From NCBI GenBank assembly GCA_963555755.3, contig OY820905.2, positions 736,001 to 800,000 of the forward strand: a DNA stretch of 64,000 bases, written 5' to 3'. Below, piece by piece: positions 25,508 through 63,542 of the stretch (the stretch's first letter is position 1; the number at the start of each line of letters is the position of its first letter). Both the position numbers and the translations under genes were made by a program. The notes beneath the pieces were generated by a model. That model saw nothing but the letters and a program-made list of their open reading frames with translations. It made no database searches and was not told the origin of the DNA. The DNA is from Nitrospirales bacterium. Lineage in GTDB: Bacteria > Nitrospirota > Nitrospiria > Nitrospirales > UBA8639.

Positions 25508-25636
25508 TAAAGGGGTCATAAAGGGGTCATAAAGGGGTCAAATCTTTGGTTGAGTAAAGGGGTCAAATCTTTGGTTGAGAGTTTCAGATGGAACGTAAAG
25601 GGGTCAAATCTTTGGTTGAGAGTTTCAGATGGAACG
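25508..25636. repeat. Ladder of progressively longer TAAAGGGGTCA.. repeats (RAYT left end)
   Basis: Units of 11, 11, 25 and 41 bp, then full length; inverted copy TCAACCAAAGATTTGACCCCT at about 26596-26616. Confidence 0.85.
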
Positions 25637-28403: not shown

Positions 28404-28711
28404 CGTTACGGGTTTAATTTGATGATCTATTGAAGCTGGAATTTCAAGGGACGATGATAAGTAAGGAGAAGTCCGTTTAACAAAGTTCGAGGGTTGAAAT
28501 TTTCCTCCCAAAAGGGCTTGCCTATACAGAAAAATGGACATATGCTAATAGAGTCATATTCAAATAAAATTTTAGGTCGCAAAAGATGGAAAATCCCAAT
28601 TGAATCGGGTTGAACACGGCACATGGGGATTATTTGAGGCCAGGAGCGAAGCTGGTCGGAATGTTTACTCTCATCCGAAATAAAAAACTGTCGTTAATGG
28701 AGAACAAGAAT

Positions 28712-29211
28712 ATGTTGAATTCGAAAAAAATCGCCATCACGCTCCTGGCGCTTCTGGGATCTTTGCCGTTGCCGGGCCAGCCACGGCGACAGAGTTTGAT
28801 CTCAAGGTATACAACAAGACTCAGGAGAAGACTGACACGGACAAGGGGACGAAAATCATGCTGTCACTCTACGATTACAGTAAAAAGAATGGTCGCGGGG
28901 GCCTAATTAAAAGCAGGATCGTCGATCCGGGGAAAATGCAAAAATTCATTATAAGCACCTCAGACTGCGACAAGAGAAAGCACAAGGTATTCACGATCAA
29001 AAGAGCCGATTCTGACGGCAACGCCGGTCAACAGATCGCTAGTAGCATTATCATGATGAGGACCGGCAGCTGCAGGAGAGCCAATAAGACGTACGAAGAA
29101 TTCACGGACGTCCAAAATGACGCCTTCGGACTCCGGAAAGAAAATTTGAGCGGCGGCCAGTACCGCGTCAACGTCAGATGCTTGACTGCGGGTAGTTGCG
29201 AACAACAATGA
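28712..29211 (+). pseudogene. Secreted-protein array member 1 (frameshift in the signal-peptide region)
   Basis: MLNSKKIAI.. start; one base short at about 28757 relative to paralogs; mature part ends VRCLTAGSCEQQ. Confidence 0.75.
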
Positions 29212-29326
29212 TGGCATTCAGGAAGTTGAGCATGGTACATGGGGATTATTTGGGGCCAGGCCCAAGCCAGTAAGAAGCCTTACTCTTATCCGAAATAAAA
29301 AACTATGATTAATGGAGAACAAGAAT

Positions 29327-29860
29327 ATGTTGAATTCTAAAAAAATCGCCATCGCGTTGCTAGCCCTGGTGGGGATCTTTGTTGTTGCCGGGCCAGCTAC
29401 GGCGGATACGAATACGGTGTTTTCTCTCAAGGTGTTCAACAAGACTGAGAAGAAGGCTGACGCGGACAAGGGGACGAAAATCTTGCTATCACTCTACGAT
29501 TACAATAATAAAAAACGGGGCAGCCTTCAGGACCACAGGATCATCAACCCGGGGGAAATGACCAACATCGATTTTAAATTCTCCAGCTGCTACAAGACCA
29601 AGCACCGGGAGTTCGTGATCAATACAGTCGATAGCAACAACAAAGTCCTCCGTGAGATCGCTTACAGCAGGATCAGGATGCAGATCAAGGATGGTTGCTT
29701 TGCTAGCGAAGTAGAGTTCCAGGACTTCACAGATATCCCAGGTGACAACTTCAAGTTGACTAAGGACAGATCTAATGGTCTCAGGTTCAAAGTCTACGTC
29801 AAATGCGAGAGTGCAGGTAGTTGCGAACAACAAAAGGGGGACGGTTCTAACATAGAGTAG
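29327..29860 (+). CDS. Secreted-protein array member 2
   Basis: Signal MLNSKKIAIALLALVGIFVVAGPATA; LKVFNKT..KGTKI; VKCESAGSCEQ. Confidence 0.85.
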   Translation: MLNSKKIAIALLALVGIFVVAGPATADTNTVFSLKVFNKTEKKADADKGTKILLSLYDYNNKKRGSLQDHRIINPGEMTNIDFKFSSCYKTKHREFVINTVDSNNKVLREIAYSRIRMQIKDGCFASEVEFQDFTDIPGDNFKLTKDRSNGLRFKVYVKCESAGSCEQQKGDGSNIE

Positions 29861-30053
29861 CCTCCTACGGGCCTGGGAAAATAGGGGAAGTAGCCTTTAC
29901 GGAGCAGGTAGCCTCGACAGGGTAGTCTTCTCCAGATTTCATCCAGGAAGTTAAGCATGGAACATGGGGATTGTTGGGTCCAGGCGCGAAGCGGGTGGCA
30001 ATGTTTACTCTAACCCAAAATAACAAACCATCAATAAACAGGAGAACAAAAAG

Positions 30054-30569
30054 ATGATAAATTCTAAAAAAATCGCCATCGCGTTGCTGGCCCTTGTAGG
30101 GATCTGTTTTGTTGCCGGGCCAGCCATGGCGAGTGAAACGTATTATCTCTATGTGTACAACAAAACTGATAATCGGATGAAACAATACAAAGGGACGAAA
30201 ATCAGCGTGTCAGTCTACCATGTCAAAAATAGTGTAAAGGGTTCCCTTAAGGCAACAAAGGAAATTCCAATAAAGGGAATTGCAACAGGAATAGGAACGT
30301 TCAAGTTTGGCTCCGGCGGTTGCACCGGAACCAAGCACCGGTTGTTTGAGATCAAAACAATCGACAAGGCCGGCATCGTCGGCCCTCTGATCGCTAGCAG
30401 CAGGCTCAGGATGAAGAACACGTCGTGCGTGACTGATCCCGAAATAGAGTTCCAGGGCTTCGTTGACGAATCAAATGACAACTTCAATATCACTAAAGAA
30501 AAAAGGTATAAAAACAAGTTCTACGTCTACGTCAACTGCAATGGTGCGGGTAATTGCGAAAGACAATGA
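30054..30569 (+). CDS. Secreted-protein array member 3
   Basis: Same signal; LYVYNKT..KGTKI; VNCNGAGNCER. Confidence 0.85.
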   Translation: MINSKKIAIALLALVGICFVAGPAMASETYYLYVYNKTDNRMKQYKGTKISVSVYHVKNSVKGSLKATKEIPIKGIATGIGTFKFGSGGCTGTKHRLFEIKTIDKAGIVGPLIASSRLRMKNTSCVTDPEIEFQGFVDESNDNFNITKEKRYKNKFYVYVNCNGAGNCERQ

Positions 30570-30740
30570 GGGTAAATTACGAACTCTACGGATCAGGAAA
30601 CGAGAGTAGGTGGCAGACAGCCTCGACAGGGCAGTTTTCTCTAGATTTCATTCAGTAAGTTGAGCATGGCACATGGGGCTGACAGGAATGTTCACTCTGC
30701 CCCGAAATAACAAACTAGCAATAAACGGGAGAACAAGAAG

Positions 30741-31247
30741 ATGATAAATTCGAAAAAAATCGCCATCGCGCTACTGGTGGCCCTGGTGGGGACCTTTGCT
30801 GTTGCCGCGCCAGCCATAGCTATGAAGTTTAAACTCTATGTGTACAACAATACTGGTGAGAAGGCGGACAAGGACGAAGGGACGAAAATCCAGGTGTCAA
30901 TCTACAAATACAGCAATGGCAAAATTGGCAGCCTTAAGGAAACCATGATAATTTCACCCAAGGTAAATGAAGCAACTGGAATAGGAAAGTTCATTTTTAA
31001 TACCGCGATCGGCAACACTCAGCACCGGAGGTACCTGATCAAAACAGTCGACAACGATGGCAAAATCGGCAAAGCGATCGGGAGTGGTAGGGTCATGATG
31101 AGGGTCAAAACCAGTTCTAGCAAATTAAAGCTCGAGGACATCGTGGACTTCAAGAATGACAATTTCACTACTACTACAAATATAAAGTTTAGAGACAGTA
31201 TCTATGTCTACGTCACGTGCAATAAAGCGGGCGTTTGCGAAGACTAA
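30741..31247 (+). CDS. Secreted-protein array member 4
   Basis: Same signal; LYVYNNT..EGTKI; VTCNKAGVCED. Confidence 0.85.
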   Translation: MINSKKIAIALLVALVGTFAVAAPAIAMKFKLYVYNNTGEKADKDEGTKIQVSIYKYSNGKIGSLKETMIISPKVNEATGIGKFIFNTAIGNTQHRRYLIKTVDNDGKIGKAIGSGRVMMRVKTSSSKLKLEDIVDFKNDNFTTTTNIKFRDSIYVYVTCNKAGVCED

Positions 31248-31446
31248 GGCAGTTGGTTCGGCCCCTGGAAATCCAGTTGAAATATTGACCGGGAAAAAAG
31301 GGCAACGCCCTTTACGGAGCAAATAGTCTCGACAGGGCAGTTTTCTCCAGATTTCATCCAGGAAGTTGAGCATGGCACATGGGGCTGACAGGAATGTTCA
31401 CTCTGCCCCGAAATAACAACCCATCAATAAACGGGAGAACAAGAAG

Positions 31447-31699
31447 ATGATGCATTCGAAAAAAATCGCCATCGCGCTCCTGGCCCTGGTGGGGATCTTT
31501 GCTGTTGCCGCGCCAGCCATGGCGTCAACACTTAAACTCAGGGTGTACAACAAAACTAATGAAGCGGTGGGCGATGACGGGACGAAAATCAAGGTGTGGG
31601 TCTTCAAATACGATAATGGCCGGCGCGACTTGCAGAAAAGTCAGATCGCCAAACCGGGAGAAAAGAGCAAATTCAAATTTAATTTCACCGACTGTTACA
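31447..31699 (+). pseudogene. Secreted-protein array member 5, truncated by IS256
   Basis: Same signal; LRVYNKT..DGTKI; homology stops at the IS256 end. Confidence 0.8.
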
Positions 31700-33073
31700 G
31701 AGCTATTGTCAAATCTAGTGTCTGAAGCGTTACTCACGCGGCGACCGGGTCCGTGGTTGTCTGTTCGATTCCATCGATAAATTGAATGTCCGCAACGACT
31801 TTGGGCAACTCTCGGAATCCTCGCAAGCGCCTCCATGTTTTCTCTGCGCATTGACCTAACTTGAACATCCTGTGCAATATGCCATCTCGCGTGAGACATC
31901 CCTTTGTGCGGATCGTCCGATGCCGAATCGTTCCAAAGGTCGATTCTCGATGGGATTGGTGGTCCGGAGACTCGGCCAATGGGCAGCCGGAAACGTATAG
32001 AACATCAGGAGCTCCTCTCGATCTTTCTGCAAACAGGCTGTGGCCTTGGGATATTTGAGCTCATAGGTGTTGAGGAATACATCAGCGGCTTGCTCCGCCA
32101 ACCCTTTGGTCTCAGACCGCCAGATGTCTTGTAAGGCCTGCTTGGCTTTGGATTGCACACTTTTGGGCAGCGCATTTAAGACATTCTGTGTCTTGTGGCA
32201 CCAACACCGTTGATGCCGCGTCACCGGGAAGATTTCTTCCAGGGCCGCCCAGAAGCCGAGGGCGCCATCCCCAACAGCCAAGGCGGGCGCGTTCAGCCCG
32301 CGGGCTTTCAGATGCAACAGGACTTCCCGCCAACTTTGGGTGGACTCACGAATCCCGTCTTCCATCGCTAAGAGATGTTTCTCCCCGGAGGCATTCATGC
32401 CGATCACGACCAATGCACCTAAGCGCTGCTCTTCAGCTCGTACGCCACGATAGATCCCATCGACCCAGATATAGACCCACTGGTCGGCATCGAATCGACG
32501 GTGTCGCCAGAGGGTATACTCCTTCCGCCAGATCTGCTTGAGCCGAGCCACCGTACTGGCGGACAGCCCCTTGGCCTCTGGGCCCACGAGGACTTCCAGC
32601 GCCGGTTGCATCTCTCCCGTCGAGATGCCTTTTACGTACAGCCATGGGATCGCCGCTTCTAAGCTAGCCGACTTGCGCACATACGGGGGGACCAGCGCCG
32701 AGTGAAACGTGACCGGTTTGCCCTGGCGACTCCGTACTTTTGGGACTTGTACGGGCACCGGCCCAATGCCCGTCTGAATGTCGCGCGTCGGATGATGGCC
32801 GCTGAGGACAACCCTCGCATGCCCCTGTTCCGTTGACTGGTCTGCATAGGTCGCCAAGAGCTCGGCCACCTCTGCTTTCAGGGCTTGGGCAAGAAGCTTC
32901 TGCGCCCCTGTTCGAATCAACTCCGTCAGCGAATCGGTCCTTCCTCGATCTTCTTCCTCTGATTTGGTACATTCCTGCATCGTGGCGTCTCTCCTTTGTG
33001 GTTGTGGTGGATGTCTCGCAACACCCATTTCAACCCGAGACGCCGCGTGTTTTCAACTGATCCTAGACACTAC
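31700..33073 (-). mobile_element. IS256-family element (transposase 31734-32980, frameshifted)
   Basis: IQTGIGPVPVQVPKVR, YIWVDGIY, RESTQSW, VGDGALGFW, HQRCWCHK, LRTTNPIE; ends approximate. Confidence 0.9.
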
Positions 33074-33159
33074 TTTCAAGTATAACTCAAATACTTGTGA
33101 TATCCCTGATTATATTCTATCCTACATTCCGCACTTGAAAACGTGTATTTTTCTGCCCC

Positions 33160-34809
33160 TCATGTATCGCCTCTTTTTTTTGCGCCAAACTGCGGTTGAG
33201 GGATTTTGAGGAGTTGCAGCACTTGGTGCTGTGGCTCGGACCACTCATCCCAAAAGGTCCTCACCAGCTTGCCGTCACGAAGAATCTCGTACCTGCAGTG
33301 CTGGGCAAAGAGTCGCTGGACTTGTTCCCAGGTCGGGGTCGAGGTGGGTCGTTCCTCGGGGAGGGTTCGCAGGGTTCGAATACCGCTCTTCTCCATCGCA
33401 TGTCTGAGATCGCGCTGAATGAGGGCGGCCACGAGATCGGCGAGGTAGACCACGAGCATGAGGGCCTCGATGCGTTCGTTGTTCTTGAGGAACACCGGCG
33501 CCACCTGGAAGTCGGACTTGAGGCCGCTGAAGCGCTTCTCGATATGGGGCTGATACTTGTACGCCTCGAGGACCGCTTTGGCGGAGAGGGAGGTATTCGT
33601 GACCAGCGGAAAGATCCCATCGATGGCCTTGGCCCGAGCGAGCTGTTCCGGGTCTTGCTGGATCATGAGCTGCGGAATGTGTTTGACGGTGCGATGGTAG
33701 GTTGACGCGGGCGAGGGTTTGCCGCGGGCGGTCTGTGTGAAGGTTTCCTCCACGCGGTGGCTCACGGTCACCGTGAGCCACAGAGCCACCTGATACCTCG
33801 CGATGATCTGGTGGGCCTGCTTGAGTAACGAGCGCTCAGTTCGGCGCCCACGCGCTTTCTTCTCGTTGAGCGCCGCGAGTTTGTGCCGAGCGATCTCCAG
33901 CCGGTCCTTGCGGCGGCTGGCATCGCGATTTCTCTTCTCGGAGGAGCGATACCAATAGAGTCGAAACCCCTCCGCCAGCTGATACGCCTCGCTCGCGACC
34001 GAAAACACGTCAGACATCCCCCGCCTTCGAGTCGAGCGCTGGCGTAGGAGCGGGTCCCAGCGGACGGTCGCCTCGTAGCAGTCGGTGGCAAACGCGTGGG
34101 TTTCGGCCCGGGTCCGAGGGACGATGGTGACAAACCGACCGTGTTCCTGGTCAATGCGCCGCATGTTCGCGGTCGTGCATAATTTGGAGTCGGCGACGTA
34201 GAGGAACCCGGCCCCGCCCACCAAGCGGCGCAACGTCAGCCAATTCTCGATATGCAGGGTATCGTCGGTCTGATGGCCCGCATGGGTCTTGAAGTGAATC
34301 GGCACGGCTCCATCGCGAGCCATCGACAAGTTGTAGAGGAGCTGTTTCAGATCGGGACGATGATCCTTGCTGTGGCCCCGCGTGAGGTGGACCCCTTTGC
34401 GCGATTGCGCCGTGTACGCCCCCGAGAACTTGACGGAGGTGGAATCACTATGGATCTGGGAGACATCAATCGCGAACCGGGCAATGGCCACCAGCGTGAG
34501 GGTGGGCTGCACGGTCGCGCGATCTGCCTGGAACAACCGGTCGAGGGCCCGTCCCAGCCCAGCATCGGTGAGCGGCGCGGCTCCTCGCTCAATAGGGTCG
34601 AACTGCTGGGCCCAGGCTGGGACGCGGTAGAGCGCTGCCGGTTCGATCAGCAGGCTTTTGATGAGGAGCTCAATCGCCGCAGCGTACCGCGCCGAACAAA
34701 GAATGTCCTCCAGGCGGTGGCGCACCCCAAGCGTCGCGAAACAGCGATTGATGAGTGGGAGGGTCGCGATCCGTACCTTCCGATGCTGCAAATCTTTGGC
34801 TTGCATCAC
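33160..34809 (-). CDS. IS1634-family transposase
   Basis: HSDSTS, GHSKDHRPDLKQ, YVADSKL, YKYQPHIEKRF..K..PVFLK..RIEAL. Confidence 0.9.
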   Translation of the reverse strand: MMQAKDLQHRKVRIATLPLINRCFATLGVRHRLEDILCSARYAAAIELLIKSLLIEPAALYRVPAWAQQFDPIERGAAPLTDAGLGRALDRLFQADRATVQPTLTLVAIARFAIDVSQIHSDSTSVKFSGAYTAQSRKGVHLTRGHSKDHRPDLKQLLYNLSMARDGAVPIHFKTHAGHQTDDTLHIENWLTLRRLVGGAGFLYVADSKLCTTANMRRIDQEHGRFVTIVPRTRAETHAFATDCYEATVRWDPLLRQRSTRRRGMSDVFSVASEAYQLAEGFRLYWYRSSEKRNRDASRRKDRLEIARHKLAALNEKKARGRRTERSLLKQAHQIIARYQVALWLTVTVSHRVEETFTQTARGKPSPASTYHRTVKHIPQLMIQQDPEQLARAKAIDGIFPLVTNTSLSAKAVLEAYKYQPHIEKRFSGLKSDFQVAPVFLKNNERIEALMLVVYLADLVAALIQRDLRHAMEKSGIRTLRTLPEERPTSTPTWEQVQRLFAQHCRYEILRDGKLVRTFWDEWSEPQHQVLQLLKIPQPQFGAKKRGDT

Positions 34810-34838
34810 GCCCTATCTTAATGCATAATAGCATTAAG

Positions 34839-35138
34839 ATGTCACGCGCAAAGATGATCCACCTCCGGGCGCCCGGACCCGTTCTGCCCGGGAGTGTGTC
34901 GACAGCAAGGGCGCGATGCGGCAAACAGACGTGCAAGTGTCGGGACGACCCGGCCCACCGACACGGGCCCTATTATCGCTGGACAGGCCTCATCGACGAA
35001 AAGAAGACCACGGTCACGCTCACGCAGGAGGAAGCCAGGGAGTGCGTACGACGGATTAAGAACTTCAAGAAACTGCAGGCGAAGCTGGCGACAGTGAGCA
35101 AGGAGGCGCTTGAAACCGCTCCGTGGACCCGGCGGTAA
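34839..35138 (+). CDS. DUF6788-like small zinc-binding protein inside IS1634
   Basis: PGSVS..RCGKQTCKC..HGPYYRWT..KKTTVTL. Confidence 0.8.
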   Translation: MSRAKMIHLRAPGPVLPGSVSTARARCGKQTCKCRDDPAHRHGPYYRWTGLIDEKKTTVTLTQEEARECVRRIKNFKKLQAKLATVSKEALETAPWTRR

Positions 35139-35516
35139 GAGCTAGGCGCTGGACACCACTGGTGGGTTCCAGGTTAAATGCACGTTCTCAAGTGCGGAAT
35201 GTAGGTTCTATACATCCGGCTTCATTTATTTCGTGAAAATTTTTGTTATTCCTTAAATTAATAAATAATCAGATATCAGCCATCAGCGTTTTGGCTTTGG
35301 TAGCTATTGGAACCTTCGCCACCTGCGTTTATGCGGACGACTTCACTGTCAAGAGTGGCGAGACTGTGTCTACACAGATTCTCGACGGTGATGACAAAGG
35401 CGTGGTAGAAAAAGGCGGCGCTATAAAACCAACCAATAGTGGTGATAATGGCATTAACATAACCGGTAATGATAACACTGCGATCAACAACGGTTCTATC
35501 GAGACGGTGGGAGGCG

Positions 35517-37419
35517 CAGGGCCATTTCATTCTTTTTATAAGCAAGGGATTCCATGAGGTTTTTTGTGCCCTCTTTTTCAGGGCAGGGCCATGCGGATGG
35601 CTAAATGGGGCTTGCCCCAGAGCAGTCTACACGCCTGCGCGATATTGGTGTAGCCTTTCAGGCGTAAGAGACTGATGGCATAGCGTCTCAGACAGGTCAT
35701 GACCATTGGGCCATTGAGACTTCGTATCTGACTCCTGTCTTCATCAAAGGTGACGTCCAACACATAATGCTGCTTATTCTCCACACTCCAATGCTTTCGG
35801 TTTTGCGAGAGGATGGTCTTCGGCCCCGCCTTGTCTTTGGACTGACTCGTGACACCGCAGACCGCTTCGACGGTCGTGAGGCCCTGCTTGAGATGCGTCA
35901 CTTCCCTCTCAATGCAGAAGACTTGCTGGACATGAGGAAAGTTGACATAGGCATTCAGGGAGTCATCGCACCAGATCCTGCGGGTCGTGATCTGCCCATG
36001 GCCTTTCTCGGTGGTGGCATAATCGCACCGGCGTGCTCGCAACGCTAAGGCCTCAATGTCGTGCTTCAAGGTGGGCTGGTTTCCCTTGACGGTGAAGACG
36101 AAGTCGGCGCCGCGTTCGTGCACCAGGTACTCGGCAATCTCTTTCTGGGTGAGGAGCGCATCCGCCGTGATCACCTTCCCTGCGATCTCGAGCGCATCTA
36201 ACAGGGGCCGCACGCAGGGGATCTCATTGGTCTTGGAGTGAACTTTTTTTGGGTGAGGTGGCGCCCGGCTTGATGGGTGACGGCGCTGAGGACGTGGGCT
36301 GTTCGCTTGGGACCTTCGACGTCCCCCGCATGGTCTTCCCATCAATGGCAATGCCCTGATCCTCCCCGCCGAAGGTGTCCAGCCACCGGCCGAGCAGGGT
36401 ATCGACTTCACAGGGGTCGACGGCCGTGATAAAGCGGTAAAGAGTGCTGCGGCTCGGGACGAGGTAGCGCCCCCCTCGCTGAGTACAGCCTAGCCGCTTG
36501 CGCATCGGCTGCGATAACTGCTGGGCCCAGTCCGAGATCGCTTCATAGCCGCGCGCGCCGCACAAGGTGGCACAGAACATGATCGCCGTGAGGGCGCGTC
36601 GGGTGTGCCGTTGCCCTTGCAAATGGCGGGGATCGGTCAGCTGCACCACATACGTAAAGAGGGAGTCCGTCTGTTTTGTATTCAATCTCATCTGAGGCGC
36701 TTCTCCTTTCTGATAGGGCTGATCAAGCATCGGGCGTGCAAGGATCTCTCGGGCTTGGGGATGCAGCCGCACGACTAGGATGCGCTTCGGTCTCTCATGC
36801 TGAACATAACACGTGTTCGACTTGCGAAACCCTCGTGTCAGACCGAGCTCGTGCCACCCGGCGGCCCGATAGCAGGTCCCGGTGAAGCGGGCAGGATCGA
36901 CGAAGGTCTCTAAGAGGAGCAAGGGGTAGCCGTGGTACAGTTGCCAATCGGACGAGATCCGTTTCGCGCAGAGCGACAGGACTTTCGAGGCGAGGTTCTT
37001 TTGCGAACAGCCCGGCAGCATGAGAAACCGGGTGTTGTTGGCCAGTAAATGGAGTCGTTGCCATTGAAAACAGGGGGGCCAGCCGATCCAGTGGTCTCGC
37101 GGTCTCGATTTGAGGGCCGCCGCCGCAAACACCAGCAAGGCCAGCCAGCGATCCTGCACACAGGCGAGATATTGTATCGATTGGCCAATCAGCGGGGCAT
37201 GACCGAGGTAGTGGTGTCTGTCGAGAAGGGTCTTGAAGGCGTCCTTTTCGTCTCGGACAATTGGGCGAACCACGACTTGCCTCAGATCAATGTCCGGCTG
37301 TCCGCTTGGCGATTCGTCTGGCATGCAAAAGAGTATGCCGTAAACGAAAAGAAAAAGCCAGCCTAAATCGATTATTCCTTATTATCTATAAAGTTACACT
37401 TTAATATGAAATAGCCCTG
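35517..37419 (-). mobile_element. ISAs1-family element; transposase has an N-terminal DUF4338 domain and is frameshifted (35578-37324)
   Basis: TIR CAGGGCYATTTCAT; 10-bp TSD GTGGGAGGCG; AIDGKT, KTNEIP, TADALLTQ, VKGNQP, HWSVEN..LDVTFDED. Confidence 0.92.
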
Positions 37420-37438
37420 GTGGGAGGCGATGCCTATG

Positions 37439-38060
37439 GTATTAACTTATTCGAATCCGACAACAATACCATCAACAACGACGGTTCTATATCGACGACG
37501 GGTGCAAAAGCCCATGGTATTTACCTGACCGGCAACGACCCTAACGGCTCCGATGCCAATACAATTAACAACGACGGTTCTATATCGACGAAGGGTTTAG
37601 ATGCCAATGGTATTGGCTTATCTGAATCCGACAACAATACCATCAACAACGACGGTTCTATATCGACGAAGAATGAATTTTCCCTTGGTATTATATTGGT
37701 CAATTCCCACAACAATACCATCAACAACGACGGTTCTATATCGACGGATAATATAAATGTCACGATGAGAAATAGCGATGGTATTGGCTTATTCATTTCC
37801 AACTTCAATACCATCAACAACGACGGTTCTATATCGACGAAGGGTACAGCTTCCTATGGTATTTACTTATTCGATTCCGACTTCAATACCATCAACAACG
37901 ACGGTTCTATATCGACGAAGGGTATAGATGCCGTGGGTATTGGCTTAGACGAATCCAACAACAATACCATCAACAACAACGGTTCTATATTGCCGAAGGG
38001 TAAAGGTGCCTTTGGTATTGACTTACTCGATTCCCACAACAATACCATCAACAACGACGG
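37439..38060 (+). repeat. About 60-bp coding tandem repeats of the autotransporter A passenger
   Basis: Recurring AATACCATCAACAACGACGGTTCTATATCGACG, about 10 units. Confidence 0.9.
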
Positions 38061-39407
38061 AGATATCTTCGTTAGTGGCGCTGGAATCTTTGCGCTTCGG
38101 GATAGGGGATCCGGTGACAATAATACCCTGAACCTGTATTCCCGTTCACGAATCATTGGCCGAATTGATTTTGGCGATGGAGTAGAGACGGTCAATTTCC
38201 ATTTCAAGAAAGCGGGTTTTTCTTCCACGTTGAGTTTTGAGAATACGGAGTCTATCAACCTGCATGACGATAATATGGTGAATGTGGGAGGCCTGACAGG
38301 AGTTTATTCGGTGGTTGATCCCACCGGTCAGTCAGTGAACGGAGCTGTTCTTGGTTCGATCACAAAAGATATCCATGGAATCCTGACCCGCCGTACGAGT
38401 CGGATGTCGAACACGAATCCCTCGCAACTGGCTTCGACCCGTGTGGAACCGGGAATGATGTCCTCTTCCCAAAAATCACAAGTCTGGGCGAGCGGTTTCG
38501 GCGCCCACCGTTCACGCGATGAAGATGGCCGTGTTCTCGCTTATGACCACGTTTATTACGGCGGCGTCGCCGGTTATGAAACGGCAACCCGTCAAGCGAG
38601 TATCGGCTTCATGGCGGGCTACGCTCAATCTGATGTAAGAACAGATTTAACCTCGATCAACACCGATAGCGAAAGTTATTTTGTCGGCGCTTATGGTCAG
38701 AAAAGATTCGCGAGCTTCAACCTGGACGCCTCTTTGCTCGCCGGTTACGAGCGCTATGACAACGACCGTATTGTGGTCGATAACCTGAATAAGTTTGAAA
38801 CTGCCGAGGCGGCTTATGACTCTTTTTTTCTAAGTCCGTCAGTCACTTTGAGTAGCGAAATCAGGGTATTCGACAAGATAGCGCTTCGTCCTTCAGTAAC
38901 CGGGATTTACAGCGTCGCATGGTATGACGATTACACCGAATCGGGCACAACCCGATCTAACCTGTCCATCGACGACCGATTCTCGCATGCCCTGATCGGA
39001 AAACTGCAAATTGCGGCGGCGTATGTGTTCAGCAATGGCAGCGAAATAGGGATTAGAGGAGGCGGCAGGTATCGCTATACGATCAATGATGATGTTGACG
39101 CCACATTAGCGGGAACGTCTTTTCGATATGCCGCGGCCGGAGACGACACTTACTTTGCAGCCATAGCGGGCGCCAATGCGCGCGTTGCGTTAATGGACAG
39201 TATCAACCTGACCGCCAATGCGGAATATGCATTCGACGATGGCATTGAAACCACCCTGTCAGGCCAACTCGTCCTTGAATTTATTGGCTCTTTAGCAGAA
39301 TCTTCGGCCTTGAATTTATTGGCTCTTCAGCAGAATCTGTGGGTGACTTGGTTCAAATAGAATAGAATAGGAATAGGGGTCAAATCTTTGAATTGAAATA
39401 GAATAGG

Positions 39408-39531
39408 GTAGAGTAGAACACTGGTGCTCACCTGGAGCTACTCTCGAACGCTTCGACGCACGCGTCTACAACGGACCACAGCAGTCAGCAATTCCCAGCG
39501 TCCCCTCATCAATCCGTGCATACAGTTTTCC
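39408..39531 (-). ncRNA. 3' end (half of DV plus DVI) of group II intron O; empty-site copy
   Basis: Near-identical to 60872-60975 joined directly to 62970-62989; ends ..CTACTCTAC. Confidence 0.85.
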
Positions 39532-41392
39532 CAAGCCGTTCACTTAATCTGTTGACACAAACCAGCAAACAGACATAAACAGCGCTTGTTTGCTGGCTTT
39601 CTTGTTTTGGATCATGCAGAAAAAATCTTCCGCAACTTCTACGCTGAAGCACCCTCGGATACCGCTCGAGTACGGTGGCTTCCAGATCAACCACTGCAAG
39701 TCTCCGGTCTGCTCGAACTACGGCGTTCCGCCAGAACACACATCGGTGCGTGGAAAAAATAGCTACACTCTGGATTCACGCAACCAAGGCATTTCATCCT
39801 GTATCTGCACGTCCTGCGGCGAAGGATTCCCTCTCAAGAGCAACCTCGGCATCGCAGAAGAAGTCGAGCGCATGTCGGCCTACCTGTCGCCTCGTGAGGT
39901 GGCGTTCTGCCGTAACGATGCCTGTACCAACCATACCGGTCAGGTGCCCGTAGGTACCGCCGGGGCATATGCCTCGTTCGGCAAGACCGCGATTGGCAGC
40001 CCCCGCTGGCGCTGTAGCGTCTGCGGTAAGACGTTCTCACAGAACACCAAGGCCACCGCCCGGCAGCGGGAACATCACAAGAACAAGACCATTTTCAAAC
40101 TGCTGGTCAACAAGCTGCCCGTGCGCCGAATCATCGAAGTCGCCGACATCCACCCCAAGACCTTCTACCACCGCCTCGACTTCCTCCATCGCCAGTGCCA
40201 ATCATTTGCCGCCCACCGCGAGCACGCCCTATCCACCCTCCCCATTCGGCGACTGTCCCTCGGCGTGGACCGGCAGGACTACCTTGTGAACTGGATGGTT
40301 CGCAAGGACAAGCGCAACATTCAGCTATCGGCCATTGCATCAGTGGACAACGAACACGGTTACGGCTTCGGTGTCCACCTTCACTTCGACCCTTCTCTGG
40401 ACAGCGAAGCTGTCCAAGCCGAAGTCGAGAAGAGCGGCGACCTTGGCATGCCCTATCCGCATCGTCGCGTTGCACGTCTGTGGCTCAATGCAGACCATGA
40501 GCGAGCCAGTGCCAAATCCCTACGCACTTCGCGGCGCAAACCCGGACTGCCAACGCAGATCGATGAAGCCTATGCCGCAGCATTGATGCGTGACGATATC
40601 GAAAGCCCCGATGCGCCGTCGCCCGTAGAACGACTTCCTGAATACGGGATGCAAACCCATGGCGAGTACACCATGTCTGGGCATTTTTTCTTCCTCAAAC
40701 GCCTGCTGGGCAATGTCCAAAAGTGGCGCTTCTTTATCGACCAAGACCCTGGACTGCGAGCCGCGTGCCTATCGGCGTTCCACGACGAGATCCGAGGCCG
40801 CACGGCGGAGGCCTTCTCTGTTCGCATCACCAAAGATCTGACGGTGGACGAAACGCGTCAAAAATACAACGAAGCGACGATGCTGTTCGTGCACGCAGAG
40901 CTCGCGCACCCAAAGATGAAGCCGCAGGAGGTCAAGTTGCTGCTGATCAAAGAGCGTCTGGCCTGTATGACGCCGCACGGGAAGTGGCAGGATCGGTGGC
41001 TTGACCATCCTTTCCCGACCATGAGCGAGCCAGAGAAGACAGTGGCCTCCCTCACCAATCTGGGCGACTACGACGAAGACCACAAAGCTTGGCTCTACAA
41101 CAAAGCGAGCGTGCATGGTGTCGATTCGTTCTTCAACCAAGTGCGTCGACGGCTCTCCCTGCTGGAGCGTCCGATCCATTCCAAATCCAACAATGGTCGG
41201 ATATGGAACGGATATTCTCCATATAACCCGGGTAATGTTGCAAAAGTACTCGACATCATGCGCACGGTGCATAACTACATCCTGACCGGCAAGGATGGCA
41301 AGACGCCAGCTGTGCGACTTGGATTGGCCCAAGCGCCGCTGGACTACGAAGCCATTATTTATTTTGCATCAACAGATTAAGTGAACGGCTTG
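39532..41392 (+). mobile_element. Large IS1-superfamily-like insertion element
   Basis: 24-bp perfect TIR CAAGCCGTTCACTTAATCTGTTGA; 9-bp flanks CAGTTTTCC / CAGTTCTCC. Confidence 0.88.
39614..41380 (+). CDS. Putative transposase of about 590 aa (two Cys/His zinc modules, HTH, DDE-like core)
   Basis: HCKSPVC..CTSC, CRNDAC.H..RWRCSVCGKTF, VDRQ, FIDQD, C-terminal HNY..KTPAVRLGL as in IS1-like proteins; stop lies in the TIR. Confidence 0.75.
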   Translation: MQKKSSATSTLKHPRIPLEYGGFQINHCKSPVCSNYGVPPEHTSVRGKNSYTLDSRNQGISSCICTSCGEGFPLKSNLGIAEEVERMSAYLSPREVAFCRNDACTNHTGQVPVGTAGAYASFGKTAIGSPRWRCSVCGKTFSQNTKATARQREHHKNKTIFKLLVNKLPVRRIIEVADIHPKTFYHRLDFLHRQCQSFAAHREHALSTLPIRRLSLGVDRQDYLVNWMVRKDKRNIQLSAIASVDNEHGYGFGVHLHFDPSLDSEAVQAEVEKSGDLGMPYPHRRVARLWLNADHERASAKSLRTSRRKPGLPTQIDEAYAAALMRDDIESPDAPSPVERLPEYGMQTHGEYTMSGHFFFLKRLLGNVQKWRFFIDQDPGLRAACLSAFHDEIRGRTAEAFSVRITKDLTVDETRQKYNEATMLFVHAELAHPKMKPQEVKLLLIKERLACMTPHGKWQDRWLDHPFPTMSEPEKTVASLTNLGDYDEDHKAWLYNKASVHGVDSFFNQVRRRLSLLERPIHSKSNNGRIWNGYSPYNPGNVAKVLDIMRTVHNYILTGKDGKTPAVRLGLAQAPLDYEAIIYFASTD

Positions 41393-41512
41393 CAGTTCTC
41401 CCGCATACGGCTCTCCGGTCAGTAGGTTCCTATGGAGTGGACGAAACGAATATGGGCATCATTCAGGCTCGTGAACCCATGATCCGCAAAGAAGGCGGTC
41501 GGCCACCGTTCA
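41393..41512 (-). pseudogene. Remnant of a different group II intron (IEP C-terminus plus 5' half of DV)
   Basis: ERWPTAFFADHGFTSL..* followed by GGAGAGCCGTATGCGGGAGAACTG. Confidence 0.75.
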
Positions 41513-42378
41513 TGTGAGATTTCCTCGTGTTGTTTACAGTTTAAAGAAAAATGTTCGTAACTTTTCGTACGGCGTCATGTTGTCGATTCCCGCATGTGGT
41601 TTGACCGTATTATAGAAATTGACGAATCGGGCAAGGCCGAGTTTCCGGTCTTGTCGTGAAGGAAAAATCGTGGCGGCATGCCACATTTCCAAAAGCGTTT
41701 TGATCACACGCTCCGCCTTGCCAGTGGTCTGAGGGCGCCGGACCCGGGTAAAGTTCTGCCCCGTGCCGTTAGCCTTACACCTGGCCACGAACGCATGATC
41801 CGGGGTGCCTTTATATTCTGTGCCATTATCTGAATAGGCACATTCGATCGTGTAGGGGCATTCCTCGAGCACTTGCTCCAGGAACGTCGCCGCAGACGTT
41901 TGCGTTTTATCGGGCAGGATCGCCGCGTACAGCTCTCGTGAGAAATCGTCAATGGCCACGAACAGATGCTCCCGCGGGAGGGTTTGCTTCTCGCCTGCGA
42001 GCAACGGTAAACGTTTGGTGTCAAAGTGGAGCATCTCCCCGGGATAGCTTTTGTTGTAGCGCCGCGCGGCAAGTTTTAGCTTGCGCTCAAGAGCCTGCTC
42101 CACCTTGGCCAGGCGTTTCATCCCGTACTGTGCCTGCAAAAAGCGCTTGTTGGTGGATGGTCGAGGCGCAAATTCCTGTTTTCGCGCTCGGTCGATCACC
42201 TTGTAAATGGTCGGCCGAGAGACGCGGAATTGCTGCGCGAGCGCTACAACCGTCCACTGCCTCGTGCCATACAGTTGCCAGATCTCTTGTCGATCAAGCG
42301 GCGTTAACCGGGTTCTTTTGTGTATTGTCATGTCTACATCCTCGCAAAAAGATGTAAACAACGCTAGAAAAATTCACA
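41513..42378 (-). mobile_element. IS481-family element (transposase 41534-42331)
   Basis: TGT..ACA ends with imperfect IR; HKRTRLTP, PGEMLHFDTK, VAIDDFSR, SDNGTEY, PQTTGKAER. Confidence 0.9.
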
Positions 42379-43402
42379 GCTTAACCCGCCACGGCGCGCT
42401 AATGGAAGAAGACACCGAGATTCCGTACCTGACCGACCCCGATGCCGATCCCGCCTTGGCACCGCTGCAGGCAGCCGCCTGCACCTACCGCATTGCCCTT
42501 GGCCCCCAAGCCGGTCAAAAAGTGCTGACGTGGAAAGACCCATCATTGCGCCTCACCAGTCAAGAGACGCCGCAACCAAAGGGCTGTGTCAGTGCGCAAG
42601 GGTTCAGTCTGCATGCCGACACCCATTGCGGCCCCCAGCAGCGACAACAACTCGAACAGCTCTGTCGCGACATCACGCGCCCGGCCTTGAGCCACAAACG
42701 CCTGCGCCGTACACCAGCCGGCGAGGTCGTCCTCCAACTCAAAACCCCGTACCGCGATGGCACCACCCATCTGGTGATGACCCCGCTGGAATTCCTGCAA
42801 CGCCTGGCCGCCCTCGTCCCACGTCCCCGGCTCCATCTCATTCGCTTCCATGGCGTGCTGGCGCCCAACGCGGCGCTACGCTCCCAGATCGTGCCCGGCG
42901 AGGCCGACCCGGCAACGGACACCGCCCATGAGGATGGCGAGGCCCTCGCTCCTTCAACACGAGCCCGCCTGAGTTGGGCGCAATGACTCAAACGCGTCTT
43001 CGCCATCGACCTCACCACCTGCCCGCAGTGCGGCGGGGCATTGACGCTCCTGGCGGCTATCGAAGATCCCGCGGTGATCTTCAAGATTTTGAGCCACCTG
43101 GGTTTGCCCACCCGCGCCCCACCACGAGCCCCGGCCCGCCTCGCCGCGTTCATGCAGCCAGCCTAATCCCAGTCTGGATTCCGGTTCAGTGCCTGAGCCG
43201 ACGCTCTCCTTTTGTCCAGGCGCCAACTCACTCCCCCCCATAATGCGAAAGGGTTGGCCTGATTCACGAAAAATGGCCCCTGCCGCCCCATCTCGCCGTG
43301 GAACTCCCGCCTTTCAGACGGTAACGTCTGCGAATTGACCCGCAACGGGGTCTTTGATACTTTCCGGTTTAGGCAAAAAGGCCTTTTAAAATTCCTATTC
43401 CC
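42379..43402 (+). mobile_element. IS91/ISCR-like element copy 3 (3' half) with oriIS-like end
   Basis: Homologous to copies 1 and 2; ends CCTTTTAAAATTCCTATTCCC. Confidence 0.88.
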
Positions 43403-55981: not shown

Positions 55982-56544
55982 AGGGTATACTCCTTCCGCC
56001 AGATCTGCTTGAGCCGAGCCACCGTACTGGCGGACAGCCCCTTGGCCTCTGGGCCCACGAGGACTTCCAGCGCCGGTTGCATCTCTCCCGTCGAGATGCC
56101 TTGTAAGTACAGCCATGGGATCGCCGCTTCCAAGCTAGCCGACTTGCGCACATACGGGGGGACCAGCGCCGAGTGAAACGTGACCGGTTTGCCCTGGCGA
56201 CTCCGTACTTTTGGGACTTGTACGGGCACCGGCCCAATGCCCGTCTGAATGTCGCGCGTCGGCTGATGGCCGCTGAGGACAACCCTCGCATGCCCCTGTT
56301 CCGTTGACTGGTCTGCATAGGTCGCCAAGAGCTCGGCCACCTCCGCTTTCAGGGCTTGGGCAAGAAGCTTCTGCGCCCCTGTTCGAATCAACTCCGTCAG
56401 CGAATCGGTCCTTCCTCGATCTTCTTCCTCTGATTTGGTACATTCCTGCATCGTGGCGTCTCTCCTTTGTGGTTGTGGTGGATGTCTCGCAACACCCATT
56501 TCAACCCGAGACGCCGCGTGTTTTCAACTGATCCTAGACACTAC
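55982..56544 (-). mobile_element. 5' part of IS256 (start of the segmental duplication)
   Basis: Near-identical to 32511-33073. Confidence 0.9.
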
Positions 56545-56591
56545 TTTCAAGTATAACTCAAATACTTGTGATATCCCTGATTATATTCTAT

Positions 56592-58676: not shown

Positions 58677-58713
58677 TTCTATACATCCGGCTTCATTTAT
58701 TTCGTGAAAATTT

Positions 58714-60823: not shown

Positions 60824-60975
60824 AATAGAATAGGAATAGGGGTCAAATCTTTGAATTGAAATAGAAATAGGGTAGAGTAGAACACTGGTGCTCACCTGGA
60901 GCTACTCTCGAACGCTTCGACGCACGCGTCTACAACGGACCACAGCAGTCAGCCATTCCCAGCGTCCCCTCATCA

Positions 60976-62969
60976 GTAGGGTCGAGGACTGGCGCGCCAA
61001 CGGTAGGGTTCGGTGGCTCCTCCACCCCTTTCGGAATGGGCCTCAGTCCGACTCCCCTGGTCACGGTTCCAGTCCCCGCCACCTCAAACCCGGCGTGCTG
61101 ATTTCCAGCACCGGGCTTTCCTGGATGCTTCACCTCAAGGGTTATGTGACCTATCAGCCTGGAAGGACTTTCATGCCGACCCGTTGTACCGCACTCGGTA
61201 ATCTCCATATAAGCCAAGTACCGTGTAGAGCCAAACCTTACTCCACCTCTTCCAGCCAAAACCTCGACGGTGGCGCACTCGCATCATGTGCCGCCGGACC
61301 TTCCGCTCCACCCAATCCTTCACGTAGGATAAACACCGACTCGCATGCCCAATCCGGAAGTAGTTCACCCAGCCCCGTACGATCGGATTGATCATGGCGA
61401 TCATCCGTCCCACCGGCTGGGATTGCCCGCGTCGGAACACTTCCTTGAGCTTCCGCAGCAACGCGGTGCGCCGCTTCACCTTCGGTATGTACTGCGGGCG
61501 CCACACTCCACGCCGCGACCGCACACGCCGAAAGTCAAAGCCCAGAAAGCCGAAGCTGCCTCCCTGACTCAGGTCCACGATTCGGCTCTTCTCCTCATTC
61601 ACCTGAAGGTCTAATTGGGCCAACGCCTCTCGCAGCTTCCGCTCCGCAACCTGCGCCAGTTGTGCGTGGCGGCGATAGCCATCCACTAACACGACGAGGT
61701 CATCCGCAAACCGGACATACTCGAGATACGTATACTGGCCCTGCCGGGTTGTCTCCTTCAGCTGCTCCAGCCTCTCATCCACTTCCGTGAGATAGAGGTT
61801 GGCCAGCAGCGGGGAAATCACACCCCCTTGAGGCACCCCACGCGGGCCGGACGCCTTGACGATGAGTTTCACCAGCCGCAGGATCGCGGGATCCTGGATG
61901 CGTCGGGCCACCTTCGCCAGCAGCCGGTCATGCCGCACCGTGTCGAAGAAGGCCGCCAGATCCACATCAATCACTCGCGTCTTGTTCTGCACCATCGCCT
62001 GAGCCACCCGGCCAATCGCCTGGTGGGCTGTCCGTTTCGGTCGATACCCATACGACCCATCACGAAAATCCGCCTCAAAGATCGGTTCCAGCAGGAGCTT
62101 GAGCGCTCCCTGTACCACGCGGTCCCGAATCGCGGGTATCCCTAAGACGCGGACTCGTCCACCGCCTTTCGAAATCTCCACGTGCCGGTTCCGCATCGGT
62201 CGGTAGGTCTGCGTGACCAGTTCGTCCCGTAGTCGTGCAAGAAAGGGCTCCACCCCCGTGGCCTCGATGCCAGCAAACGTCACCCCATCAATGCCGGGGG
62301 CTCCGTTGTTTTTCTTGGCCATCGAATAGGCCGCGCGTAGCGTCGCCTCTTTGCACACGTGGACGTACAGGCCCCACACCCGCCATCGCTTCTCAGCCTT
62401 CGCCTTGACGTAGAGCCGCTGTCGCAGGTCTTGCAGTGTAATGGACGCCGTTGTCATCTCGTCCCTGCCTCCCATGTTGATCACAGCCTACAGCCAGTAG
62501 GGCTCCTTTGCTCCACAGGCATGACCCTGCTTCCTCGCTCCTACGAGCCCCTCCGCCACCCTCTCGTCTTCGGCTCACTTCCCAGAGAGCTGGTTATAGA
62601 GCCGATCTTCCTCCAGGGATTTCTCCCTGGGACGAGGAGGGCTTCTCCAGTTGCGTCGTCTGTCCTTGCTCCCGTGCTGTCGCTCTCACCCCGCCGGAGT
62701 GGCCAGGCGTCTCAGCCTTGGTTCGCCTGTCCATGCCGTCTTCGTCCTACGGACAGGGACTCGACCTCCGAGGTTTCATACTTTCGAGGCTACCTCTGCG
62801 TTCACTTTCGTTACGGCCCGGGAACTCGCTCACCATCCTCTACGATGGCTTTGTCGATGGGCTTCAGCGTCTCGGTTTCTCTCCACGCTGCCATCCAAGC
62901 TACAGGGCTCAGGCTCTTACCCTGGTGGGCTTGCTTCCCACTGAACAGTCTCGCCTTACCTGGACACAC
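60976..62969 (-). mobile_element. Complete group II intron inserted at the DV/DVI junction of intron O
   Basis: Starts GTGTG and ends CGACCCTAC; DV AAGCCCGGTGCTGGAAATCAGCACGCCGGGTTT; boundaries confirmed by the empty site at 39511/39512. Confidence 0.92.
61171..62457 (-). CDS. ltrA: Group II intron reverse transcriptase/maturase, no endonuclease domain
   Basis: APGIDG, LGIPAIRDRVVQ, PQGGVISPLLAN, RFADD, FLGF, NPIVRGWVNYF. Confidence 0.93.
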   Translation of the reverse strand: MTTASITLQDLRQRLYVKAKAEKRWRVWGLYVHVCKEATLRAAYSMAKKNNGAPGIDGVTFAGIEATGVEPFLARLRDELVTQTYRPMRNRHVEISKGGGRVRVLGIPAIRDRVVQGALKLLLEPIFEADFRDGSYGYRPKRTAHQAIGRVAQAMVQNKTRVIDVDLAAFFDTVRHDRLLAKVARRIQDPAILRLVKLIVKASGPRGVPQGGVISPLLANLYLTEVDERLEQLKETTRQGQYTYLEYVRFADDLVVLVDGYRRHAQLAQVAERKLREALAQLDLQVNEEKSRIVDLSQGGSFGFLGFDFRRVRSRRGVWRPQYIPKVKRRTALLRKLKEVFRRGQSQPVGRMIAMINPIVRGWVNYFRIGHASRCLSYVKDWVERKVRRHMMRVRHRRGFGWKRWSKVWLYTVLGLYGDYRVRYNGSA

Positions 62970-63542
62970 ATCCGTGCGTACAGTTTTCCCGTACACGGCT
63001 TTCCGATGTTCTTCGTCAGAACGCATGCGCCCGTTTCCAGCCAGCTATCGTGGGAAGCTTGAACAAGCCGTATCGAGCATAGAGCATGGCCGTGGGAAAC
63101 TGCGCATACCCTGCCGCCCGGCTTTTCACCTTGTGCCGTTTGCGGAGGTGCGCGCGCAGTCGCTCTTCCACATGCCATTTCACTCGACCCAAGCCCTTGG
63201 AGCTCTTGCGGTAGTGGAAATAGCCCGCCCACCCGCGCACGTACTGGTTGAGCGTCGCCACCACATCAGGGAGCGGAATCGGGGTCCCACCACGAGCCGT
63301 CATCTGTGTCACTCGTGCTTTCGCCCGCTGGATGGATCGGAGGGACGGCTCCACGTGCGGGTAGACTTTCCCGCTCGTGCGTCCCGTCCGGAGACCAAAG
63401 GAAAACCCGAGAAAGTCAAACCGTTCCTGCCTGGCGTTGACTTCCCTGGTTTTCTCCTCATTGAGGCTCAGCCCCAATCCCTCCAGCAAGTGGTGGAGGA
63501 CCGTCATTGACGGAGCCACCTCCCCCGCACAAAGCACCACCA

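Follow-up and report, generated by a model that had tools for sequence, protein, structure and literature searches.

Several insertion sequences (IS) are known to choose palindromic targets. In PMC1525189, IS1397, ISKpn1, ISRm22, ISPsy8, ISPa11, and ISPpu9/10, which represent five families (IS3, IS110, IS4, IS256, and IS5), are described as inserting at the symmetry axis of the repeated REP palindrome; the transposase is held responsible for target choice, and single direct-repeat copies are noted on reciprocal deletion products. Catalytic introns tied to an IS have also been described, as in IStrons and RmInt1 in ISRm2011-2; in these pairs, the intron is reported to provide shelter for the IS or to invade it. 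PMC8919778 mentions an intron that a transposase splits in two, where the site is not given. Within the open-access literature, at the level of abstracts, we found no IS with a preference for domain V (DV) of group II introns, and the accessible parts of PMC8297860 and PMC8269235 contain nothing on the element described here.

We analyzed a window of 64,000 nucleotides (the whole stretch of DNA studied) from a Nitrospirales bacterium, in which an IS interrupts a group II intron DV. Like the REP-targeting IS, it sits at the symmetry axis of a repeated palindrome, its target duplication lying on the DV dyad. However, the target is not a REP unit but the DV of another mobile element, conserved across phyla, and the IS is unclassified. 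In contrast to IStrons and RmInt1, it is the IS that enters the core of the ribozyme in this case, and we saw no indication that the two move together. The element works like a palindrome-targeting IS; by their models, it lies outside the IS1 and IS256 families.

The element and its transposase

The element spans positions 39532–41392 of the window (1.9 kb) and carries a single 588-aa ORF (Table 1). The perfect 24-bp TIRs and near-identical 9-bp flanks reported in the first-pass annotation were confirmed: the TIRs are complementary at 24/24 positions (93% over 30 nt), and the flanks, CAGTTTTCC on the left and CAGTTCTCC on the right, differ by one mismatch. The ORF can be read from 39590 or 39614 to 41380, and because homologues measure 588 aa, the ATG at 39614 is the likely start. 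We rejected an 11-bp duplication with the TIR starting at AAG; the bases adjoining the 9-mer vary, and CAAG is constant. The TIR begins CAAGCCGT (39532–39538), resembling the DV 5' strand and the target half-site (AAGCCG). This likeness is not required, since elements with the variant CAAGGCG (L020, L025) are also found in DV.

Table 1. Features of the interrupted locus and of the reference O intron (window coordinates; C1, genome coordinates).
Feature	Position	Strand	Match
3' remnant of O-type group II intron (DV 3' strand, DVI, 3' end; end approximate)	39406..39522	-	97.6% to O copy C1:228317-228442; 99% to window 60870-60975
Left 9-bp target copy, GGAAAACTG in intron sense (intron O DV loop)	39523..39531	-	
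Left terminal inverted repeat (TIR), 24 bp	39532..39555	+	
Transposase ORF, 588 aa (2 C4 zinc modules, HTH, predicted RNase H core, 2 insertions)	39614..41380	+	
Right TIR, 24 bp, containing the ORF stop codon	41369..41392	-	
Right 9-bp target copy, GGAGAACTG in intron sense (intron X DV loop)	41393..41401	-	
Leftover 5' part of intron X (IEP C-terminal codons, DIV/DV junction, DV 5' strand)	41402..41510	-	
Presumed IS481-like element cutting the X remnant (later event; limits approximate)	41513..42385	-	96% to C1:1483980-1484852
Reference O intron 3' part in duplicated segment, DV intact, then nested intron N (60976-62969)	60870..63017	-	

The first-pass annotation had called the element IS1-like, with a protein larger than that of IS1 and containing tandem zinc modules and insertions. 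The protein has two C4 modules (C28/33/65/68 and C99/104/134/137), an HTH at about residues 155–207, and two large insertions in the predicted RNase H core, at about 261–345 and 409–498. The likeness to IS1 holds for the Zn/HTH region and the C-terminus, but not for the whole protein, which falls far below the IS1 family cut-off. An N-terminal CxxC zinc ribbon with HTH (E = 1.3e-7) and the 9-bp duplication are shared with IS1, and hhalign against four single-ORF IS1-like proteins aligned the stretch from the HTH to the first core strand (probability 89%) and the C-terminal HNY...TPAxxxGL stretch. NF050000 (IS1-IS1595 zinc-binding transposases) gave E = 1.6e-4, below its 28-bit cut-off; the IS1 family model NF033558 gave 31.8 bits against a cut-off of 100, over residues 131–203 only, and the Pfam IS1 domain gave no match. 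Unlike IS1, the protein has 588 aa, a second zinc module, two large insertions, a third acidic residue predicted to be Asp, and strong target specificity. IS1 ends begin GG, whereas the ends of this element begin CAAG (YAAG/YTAG in relatives). A classic InsB-like ORF of this genome did not align (probability 0.2%).

Structure prediction, proposed in the first-pass annotation as a way to locate the DDE residues and inserted domains, gave an RNase H fold (pLDDT 89, pTM 0.90) with D219, D376, and D504 as predicted catalytic residues. The best structural match is the ISCth4 transposase (IS256 family; PDB 6xg8), with Z = 12.4 and rmsd 3.9 over 239 residues, which also fills the top four rows in Foldseek; Tn5 (Z = 10.4) and then integrases follow, and residues 1–155 are barely covered. 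The two proteins may share a helical insertion after the fifth core strand; they are 11% identical, and residues 1–155 have no counterpart in ISCth4. The IS256 family models were not reached: NF048018 gave 17.9 of 27 bits and NF033544 was also below its cut-off, both from the zinc part only. Pfam, PDB-sequence, and Atlas searches returned only zinc-finger fragments or unnamed clusters.

In an alignment of 111 relatives, the eight cysteines are kept in 104–111, D219 in 111, D376 in 106, D504 in 94, and E518 in 95. The D504 position is Asn in 13 of the 111, including the dfrG element discussed below. In DDE folds, the third catalytic residue normally sits at the start of the helix that follows the insertion. 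We predict a DDD triad (D219/D376/D504) because D504 starts the helix after the large insertion; with E518 kept in 95/111, the assignment of the third residue to D504 is uncertain. As candidates for target specificity, 26 clade-specific positions were compared, and they showed no clustering in one domain. By its TIRs, fixed 9-bp duplication, and predicted fold, the element is a TIR insertion sequence with a putative RNase H-fold transposase.

Copies in this genome

The genome (G000) contains four copies more than 99% alike, all with perfect 24-bp TIRs: A (this locus), B (C1:1024325–1026939), C (1251115–1252975), and D (3058590–3060450). The flanks of the other three are not random; each is flanked by DV, and 8 of 8 junctions lie in DV at one register. 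Copies C (intron Y) and D (intron X, reversed) have perfect 9-bp duplications. Copy B is flanked by X at both ends, its two 9-mers differing at one position, and intron N is nested behind it. There are about 42 DV registers in 4.6 Mb, so that under random insertion three further copies would fall at the register with p of about 1e-15. The outer DV stem encloses 17 bases, and the 9-mer occupies their middle; it is thus centered on the linear-DNA dyad, while the RNA loop is off-center relative to the duplication because of a 2-nt bulge. Insertions occur in both orientations, with opposite ones in the same intron type, which suggests separate insertions. Transposition of the element is suggested indirectly by the near-identical copies at different sites and by MITE derivatives of about 165 bp.

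In the RNA fold predicted for a DV carrying the element, the outer stem is kept and the inner helix is scrambled. Of the four interrupted DVs, three escaped the Rfam model and one gave E = 0.26. No spliced joint, circle junction, or new insertion site was present in contigs of eight public runs, RNA runs among them, an assembly form that drops rare variants; one run (X2) contained one 97-bp internally deleted derivative.

The four copies have 24 differences, mostly C/A or G/T transversions, an excess that reflects either an unusual mutation spectrum or a polishing artefact. The SNP splits are mutually incompatible, which gives a weak hint of exchange between copies; recurrent changes or polishing errors may account for them instead. 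Copy B also has an insert of 742 bp near its right end (C1:1026156–1026897), without a long ORF, which has four further copies in the genome. Intron N (60976–62969, minus strand; about 15 copies in the genome) nests directly behind the DV of O-, Y-, and X-type introns and occurs in tandem at C1:2160017–2166018; IS copies B and C share a DV with it.

Flanks of close relatives

Close homologues (75–91% identity), an exact TIR scan of metagenomes, and the four copies above provided 96 distinct 30-nt flanks. DV calls were made by pattern and then curated by hand, which added 13 rows, removed 1, and put 4 aside; loci L132–L161, where the first intact-DV pattern matched nothing, were left out of the flank analysis. 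Thirty-eight flanks are DV in register and 54 lie outside DV; two are intron-associated but off register or unclear, and two decayed ends were dropped. Outside G000, DV in register accounts for 31 of 89 flanks (16/37 from genomes and 15/52 from metagenome contigs). Readable ends are available for 13 other genomes, and 9 of these, from Alpha-, Beta-, and Gammaproteobacteria, contain a DV insertion. The DV sites hit belong to several intron types, with widely varying 9-mers and constant half-sites. For the 35 elements with two readable ends, the 9-mers are identical in 22, differ by one mismatch in 5, and are unmatched in 8.

The target preference for DV claimed in the first-pass annotation is strong (4/4 copies here, 9/13 other genomes), though not exclusive (54/96 flanks outside DV). 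It is displayed by the distribution itself, and we hold it with high confidence; part of the enrichment can stem from survival bias, as an insertion into an intron does no harm.

Among the other genomes, G301 has 11 copies, of which 4 are in DV, 4 at one DV-like site, and 3 elsewhere. The DV-like site (L011, L012, L016, L129) lies in another multi-copy transposase gene and is hit in both orientations. L012 has an identical flank on both sides (an inversion between copies), and similarly L006 has two DV 3' flanks. MITE derivatives of about 145–170 bp with the same TIRs were found at L040, L049, L065, L069, L079, L086, L103, and L038; the one at L069 is in DV with a perfect 9-bp duplication.

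The target motif

The half-site is A-n-C-C-G-n-A, located 11 to 5 bases outside the duplication, and it is kept at non-intron sites. In the 54 non-DV flanks, C, C, and G are found at −9, −8, and −7 in 37, 38, and 35 cases, and A at −11 in 25. Exact CCG at −9 to −7 occurs in 21 of these flanks (1.1 expected) and in 0–3 at eight neighboring registers. The non-DV 9-mers have C or G at both ends in 53/54 and an A/T center.

A symmetric matrix was trained solely on the 54 non-DV flanks and scored over the 4.6 million positions of C1. The intact X, Y, and O DVs occupy ranks 1–7. Once reconstructed without the element, the sites of copies B, C, and D score at or above rank 2. The N-type DV (CCC, 15 copies) ranks 360, and five DVs with a 10-nt spacer fall beyond 35,000; the element occupies 0 of these 20 DVs, although the numbers are small. 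Decayed DVs may be present among the rows counted as non-DV and would inflate this test. After removal of DV-like flanks, the DVs rank 1–9 (n = 45) or 2–91 (n = 33). Metagenome flanks alone put them at ranks 1–8; with 20 genome-locus flanks alone, X ranks 1–2 and Y and O drop to 138–1073. Shifted-register controls gave ranks above 1,000,000. The information per position in the matrix is low.

That a matrix built from non-DV sites puts the DVs on top favors a transposase that reads the DNA itself, as a palindrome of fixed spacing, over one that recognizes a hairpin; duplex DNA sequence is probably what it reads. We suggest, with a probability of about 0.7, that the copies sit in DV since the transposase reads a 33-bp double-stranded DNA palindrome for which DV is the best match genome-wide.

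The wider family and the choice of target

The family comprises 1549 representatives at E ≤ 0.001 and 404 at E < 1e-30, and no Pfam family matched the transposase. Readable ends were available for 19 distant elements (23–52% identity), and no insertion among them lies in DV; 13 are at A-tract or terminator-like sites (5 at terminator-like palindromes and 8 with an A-tract 10–15 bases out), several single ends having been assigned by a loose pattern. The DV users form one clade with SH-aLRT 100 in a quick tree of 32 rows, and DV use is found in each sub-branch. The DV half-sites (GAAAGCCG, TCAAACCG) resemble the terminator half-sites (AAAAGCCC), a likeness that suggests how a shift from terminator to DV may have arisen.

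Family members of 826–964 aa (P0137, P0138, P0157, P0180, P0189, P0201, P0254) have a C-terminal DEDD (RNase_T/DnaQ-like) exonuclease domain. Viral contigs gave one distant match, and phages only the dfrG element. Matches were also obtained in the genomes G839 and G998, on which none of the conclusions here depends. PMC8544886 treats the dfrG element (L122:2328–5605; Staphylococcus/Enterococcus), with its ORFU1/'insertion element protein', only as a putative mobile element whose ORFs are hypothetical. The long ORF of this element is homologous to our transposase over the full length (23% identity, E = 1e-29). The two elements share the D219 and D376 motifs and the 9-bp duplication, and the dfrG element has TIRs of 27–28 bp; however, it is 3.3 kb long, contains a small extra ORF and dfrG, has Asn at the D504 position, and lies outside introns.

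The enrichment might alternatively come from coincidence and survival: a general preference for CCG-N6-[9 bp]-N6-CGG, never tuned to introns, which DV happens to fit, with the harmless insertions persisting. This explanation shares its binding mechanism with the duplex reading and differs in the evolutionary claim only. It accommodates the majority of flanks outside DV, the other palindromes read by relatives, and the low information of the matrix. We nevertheless regard it as unlikely. The optimum learned from non-DV sites alone falls on the DVs, which take the first 7 ranks among 4.6 million positions; insertions into intergenic DNA would do no more harm, and such DNA is far more plentiful; and DV use is limited to the one well-supported clade, in each of its sub-branches. 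On the evolutionary claim itself, that introns were selected as the target, we consider the odds to be even.

Somewhat less probable still is that the transposase recognizes the structure of DV, as a cruciform or as a single-stranded hairpin in replication, transcription, or reverse splicing, possibly aided by intron RNA or the IEP. Three distant relatives (L024, L128, L165) sit in terminator hairpins, the non-DV site L007 is a true centered hairpin, and the DV sites fold at −6.5 to −10.9 kcal/mol, as this explanation would have it. By contrast, among the 13 non-DV sites whose duplications match, folding is weak in 11 (−1.5 to −5.7 kcal/mol), most of the 13 being off-center, and the duplication is centered on the linear dyad rather than on the hairpin loop. 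Furthermore, the 20 unused DVs of the N type or with a 10-nt spacer form hairpins equally well (small numbers again), and both orientations are used.

The chimeric flanks at this locus

The first-pass annotation had also noted that the two flanks of copy A come from different introns, and our comparisons agree. The left flank (39406–39531), read on the minus strand, belongs to an O-type intron, of which it holds the 3' half of DV, the DVI, and the 3' terminus; it differs from the O copy at C1:228317 at 3 of 126 nt and from that at 60870–60975 at 1 of 106. The right flank, to about 41510, comes from a different intron, X, and comprises the end of its IEP (ERWPTAFFADHG...) and the 5' strand of its DV; positions 41393–41497 have one difference to each of four other X copies. 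The X remnant ends at about 41513, cut by an element that we take to be IS481-like from its ORF. The native DV loops are GGAGAACTG in X and GGAAAACTG in O, and each flank retains the parental 9-mer. Because both 9-mers are native loops, the mismatch between the flanks is parental and not a mutated duplication. The X 5' strand occurs five times in the genome; in two cases the DV 3' half of X comes next, and in the other three the element does. We found no intact intron in the genome with the X-type IEP end and O-type DVI, and no O-5' junction among the eight element junctions. The parental 9-mers, the lack of an X/O chimera without the element, and the lack of an O-5' junction indicate that two DV sites were joined with loss of the intervening DNA.

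The recombination of two inserted copies proposed in the first-pass annotation requires DV targeting, and this part of the proposal is supported; as the sole route it is not, because adjacent deletion gives the same product. Recombination between two copies and adjacent deletion by one copy in cis would both explain the product, and the sequence cannot separate them. The latter route, in which a copy in X attacks the DV of O on the same chromosome, likewise needs DV targeting. By either route, a copy in X and the DV of O would have been joined and the O 5' part and X 3' part lost; IS481-like and IS91-like elements would have truncated X afterwards.

Short-read contigs of public runs X1, X3, and X4 bridge the left junction, and those of X8 and X4 the right; none spans the whole element. 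We consider it very improbable that this locus arose by ordinary insertion into a pre-existing X/O chimeric intron with later mutation, or by an assembly that swapped flanks between copies, since, although the one-base mismatch between the X flanks of copy B shows that mutated duplications occur and no short-read contig spans copy A, both 9-mers match the parents' loops, an X/O chimera without the element is absent, a swap should leave a reciprocal O-5' junction (0/8), and unmatched flanks are frequent among relatives (8/35). The DV preference would be unaffected in any case.

A segmental duplication, 32511–39511 and 55982–60975 (98.5% and 91%), includes an autotransporter-like repeat gene and the O-intron site, and its right edge is the IS junction. 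The left flank of copy A forms the end of the first segment, and the twin segment keeps an intact O DV. The O intron adjoins a short repeated motif of the GGGGTCAAATCTTTG family (39371–39400, 25529–25635), and about five paralogous small secreted proteins (MINSKKIAIALL...) are arranged in tandem at 28649–31730 with a spacing of about 700 bp.

Proposed mechanism and implications

In the mechanism that we propose, the transposase would act as a symmetric pair, a dimer being predicted from the symmetry of the target. Each protomer would bind one half-site, the RNase H core (D219, D376, D504) would cut 9 bp apart, and repair would copy the loop. DVs with a 9-nt spacer and CCG would be hit, whereas those with a 10-nt spacer or CCC would be poor targets. 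The insertion would exchange the DV loop for 1.9 kb and cripple the intron. The DV preference may have arisen in one clade from ancestors that read A-tract or terminator palindromes (AAAAGCC...), and it would let the element land, in different phyla, at a site that is conserved, dispensable, and present in many copies.

In this case a genetic parasite is likely the prey of another. It is an even bet, in our judgment, that this transposon lineage, descended from terminator-reading ancestors, has come to specialize as a predator on group II introns, with a transposase tuned to the part of the ribozyme that is conserved best; it would gain a harmless landing site in any intron-carrying phylum, while introns would be knocked out one by one and their spread limited. 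Together with the DV-homing introns, such a lineage would make domain V a niche for which several elements compete.

Invasion of IS elements by introns is well known, whereas an IS lineage that seeks the catalytic core of introns was not found in the open-access literature. The pipeline in PMC8919778 detects introns by DV-DVI, and surveys of this kind would have a blind spot for DVs split by the element. The results also place the widespread dfrG trimethoprim-resistance element in this transposase family. A large, unannotated transposase family whose target choice changes between clades is a tractable system for the study of DNA reading, and insertion into DV is a possible mechanism for the decay of group II introns.
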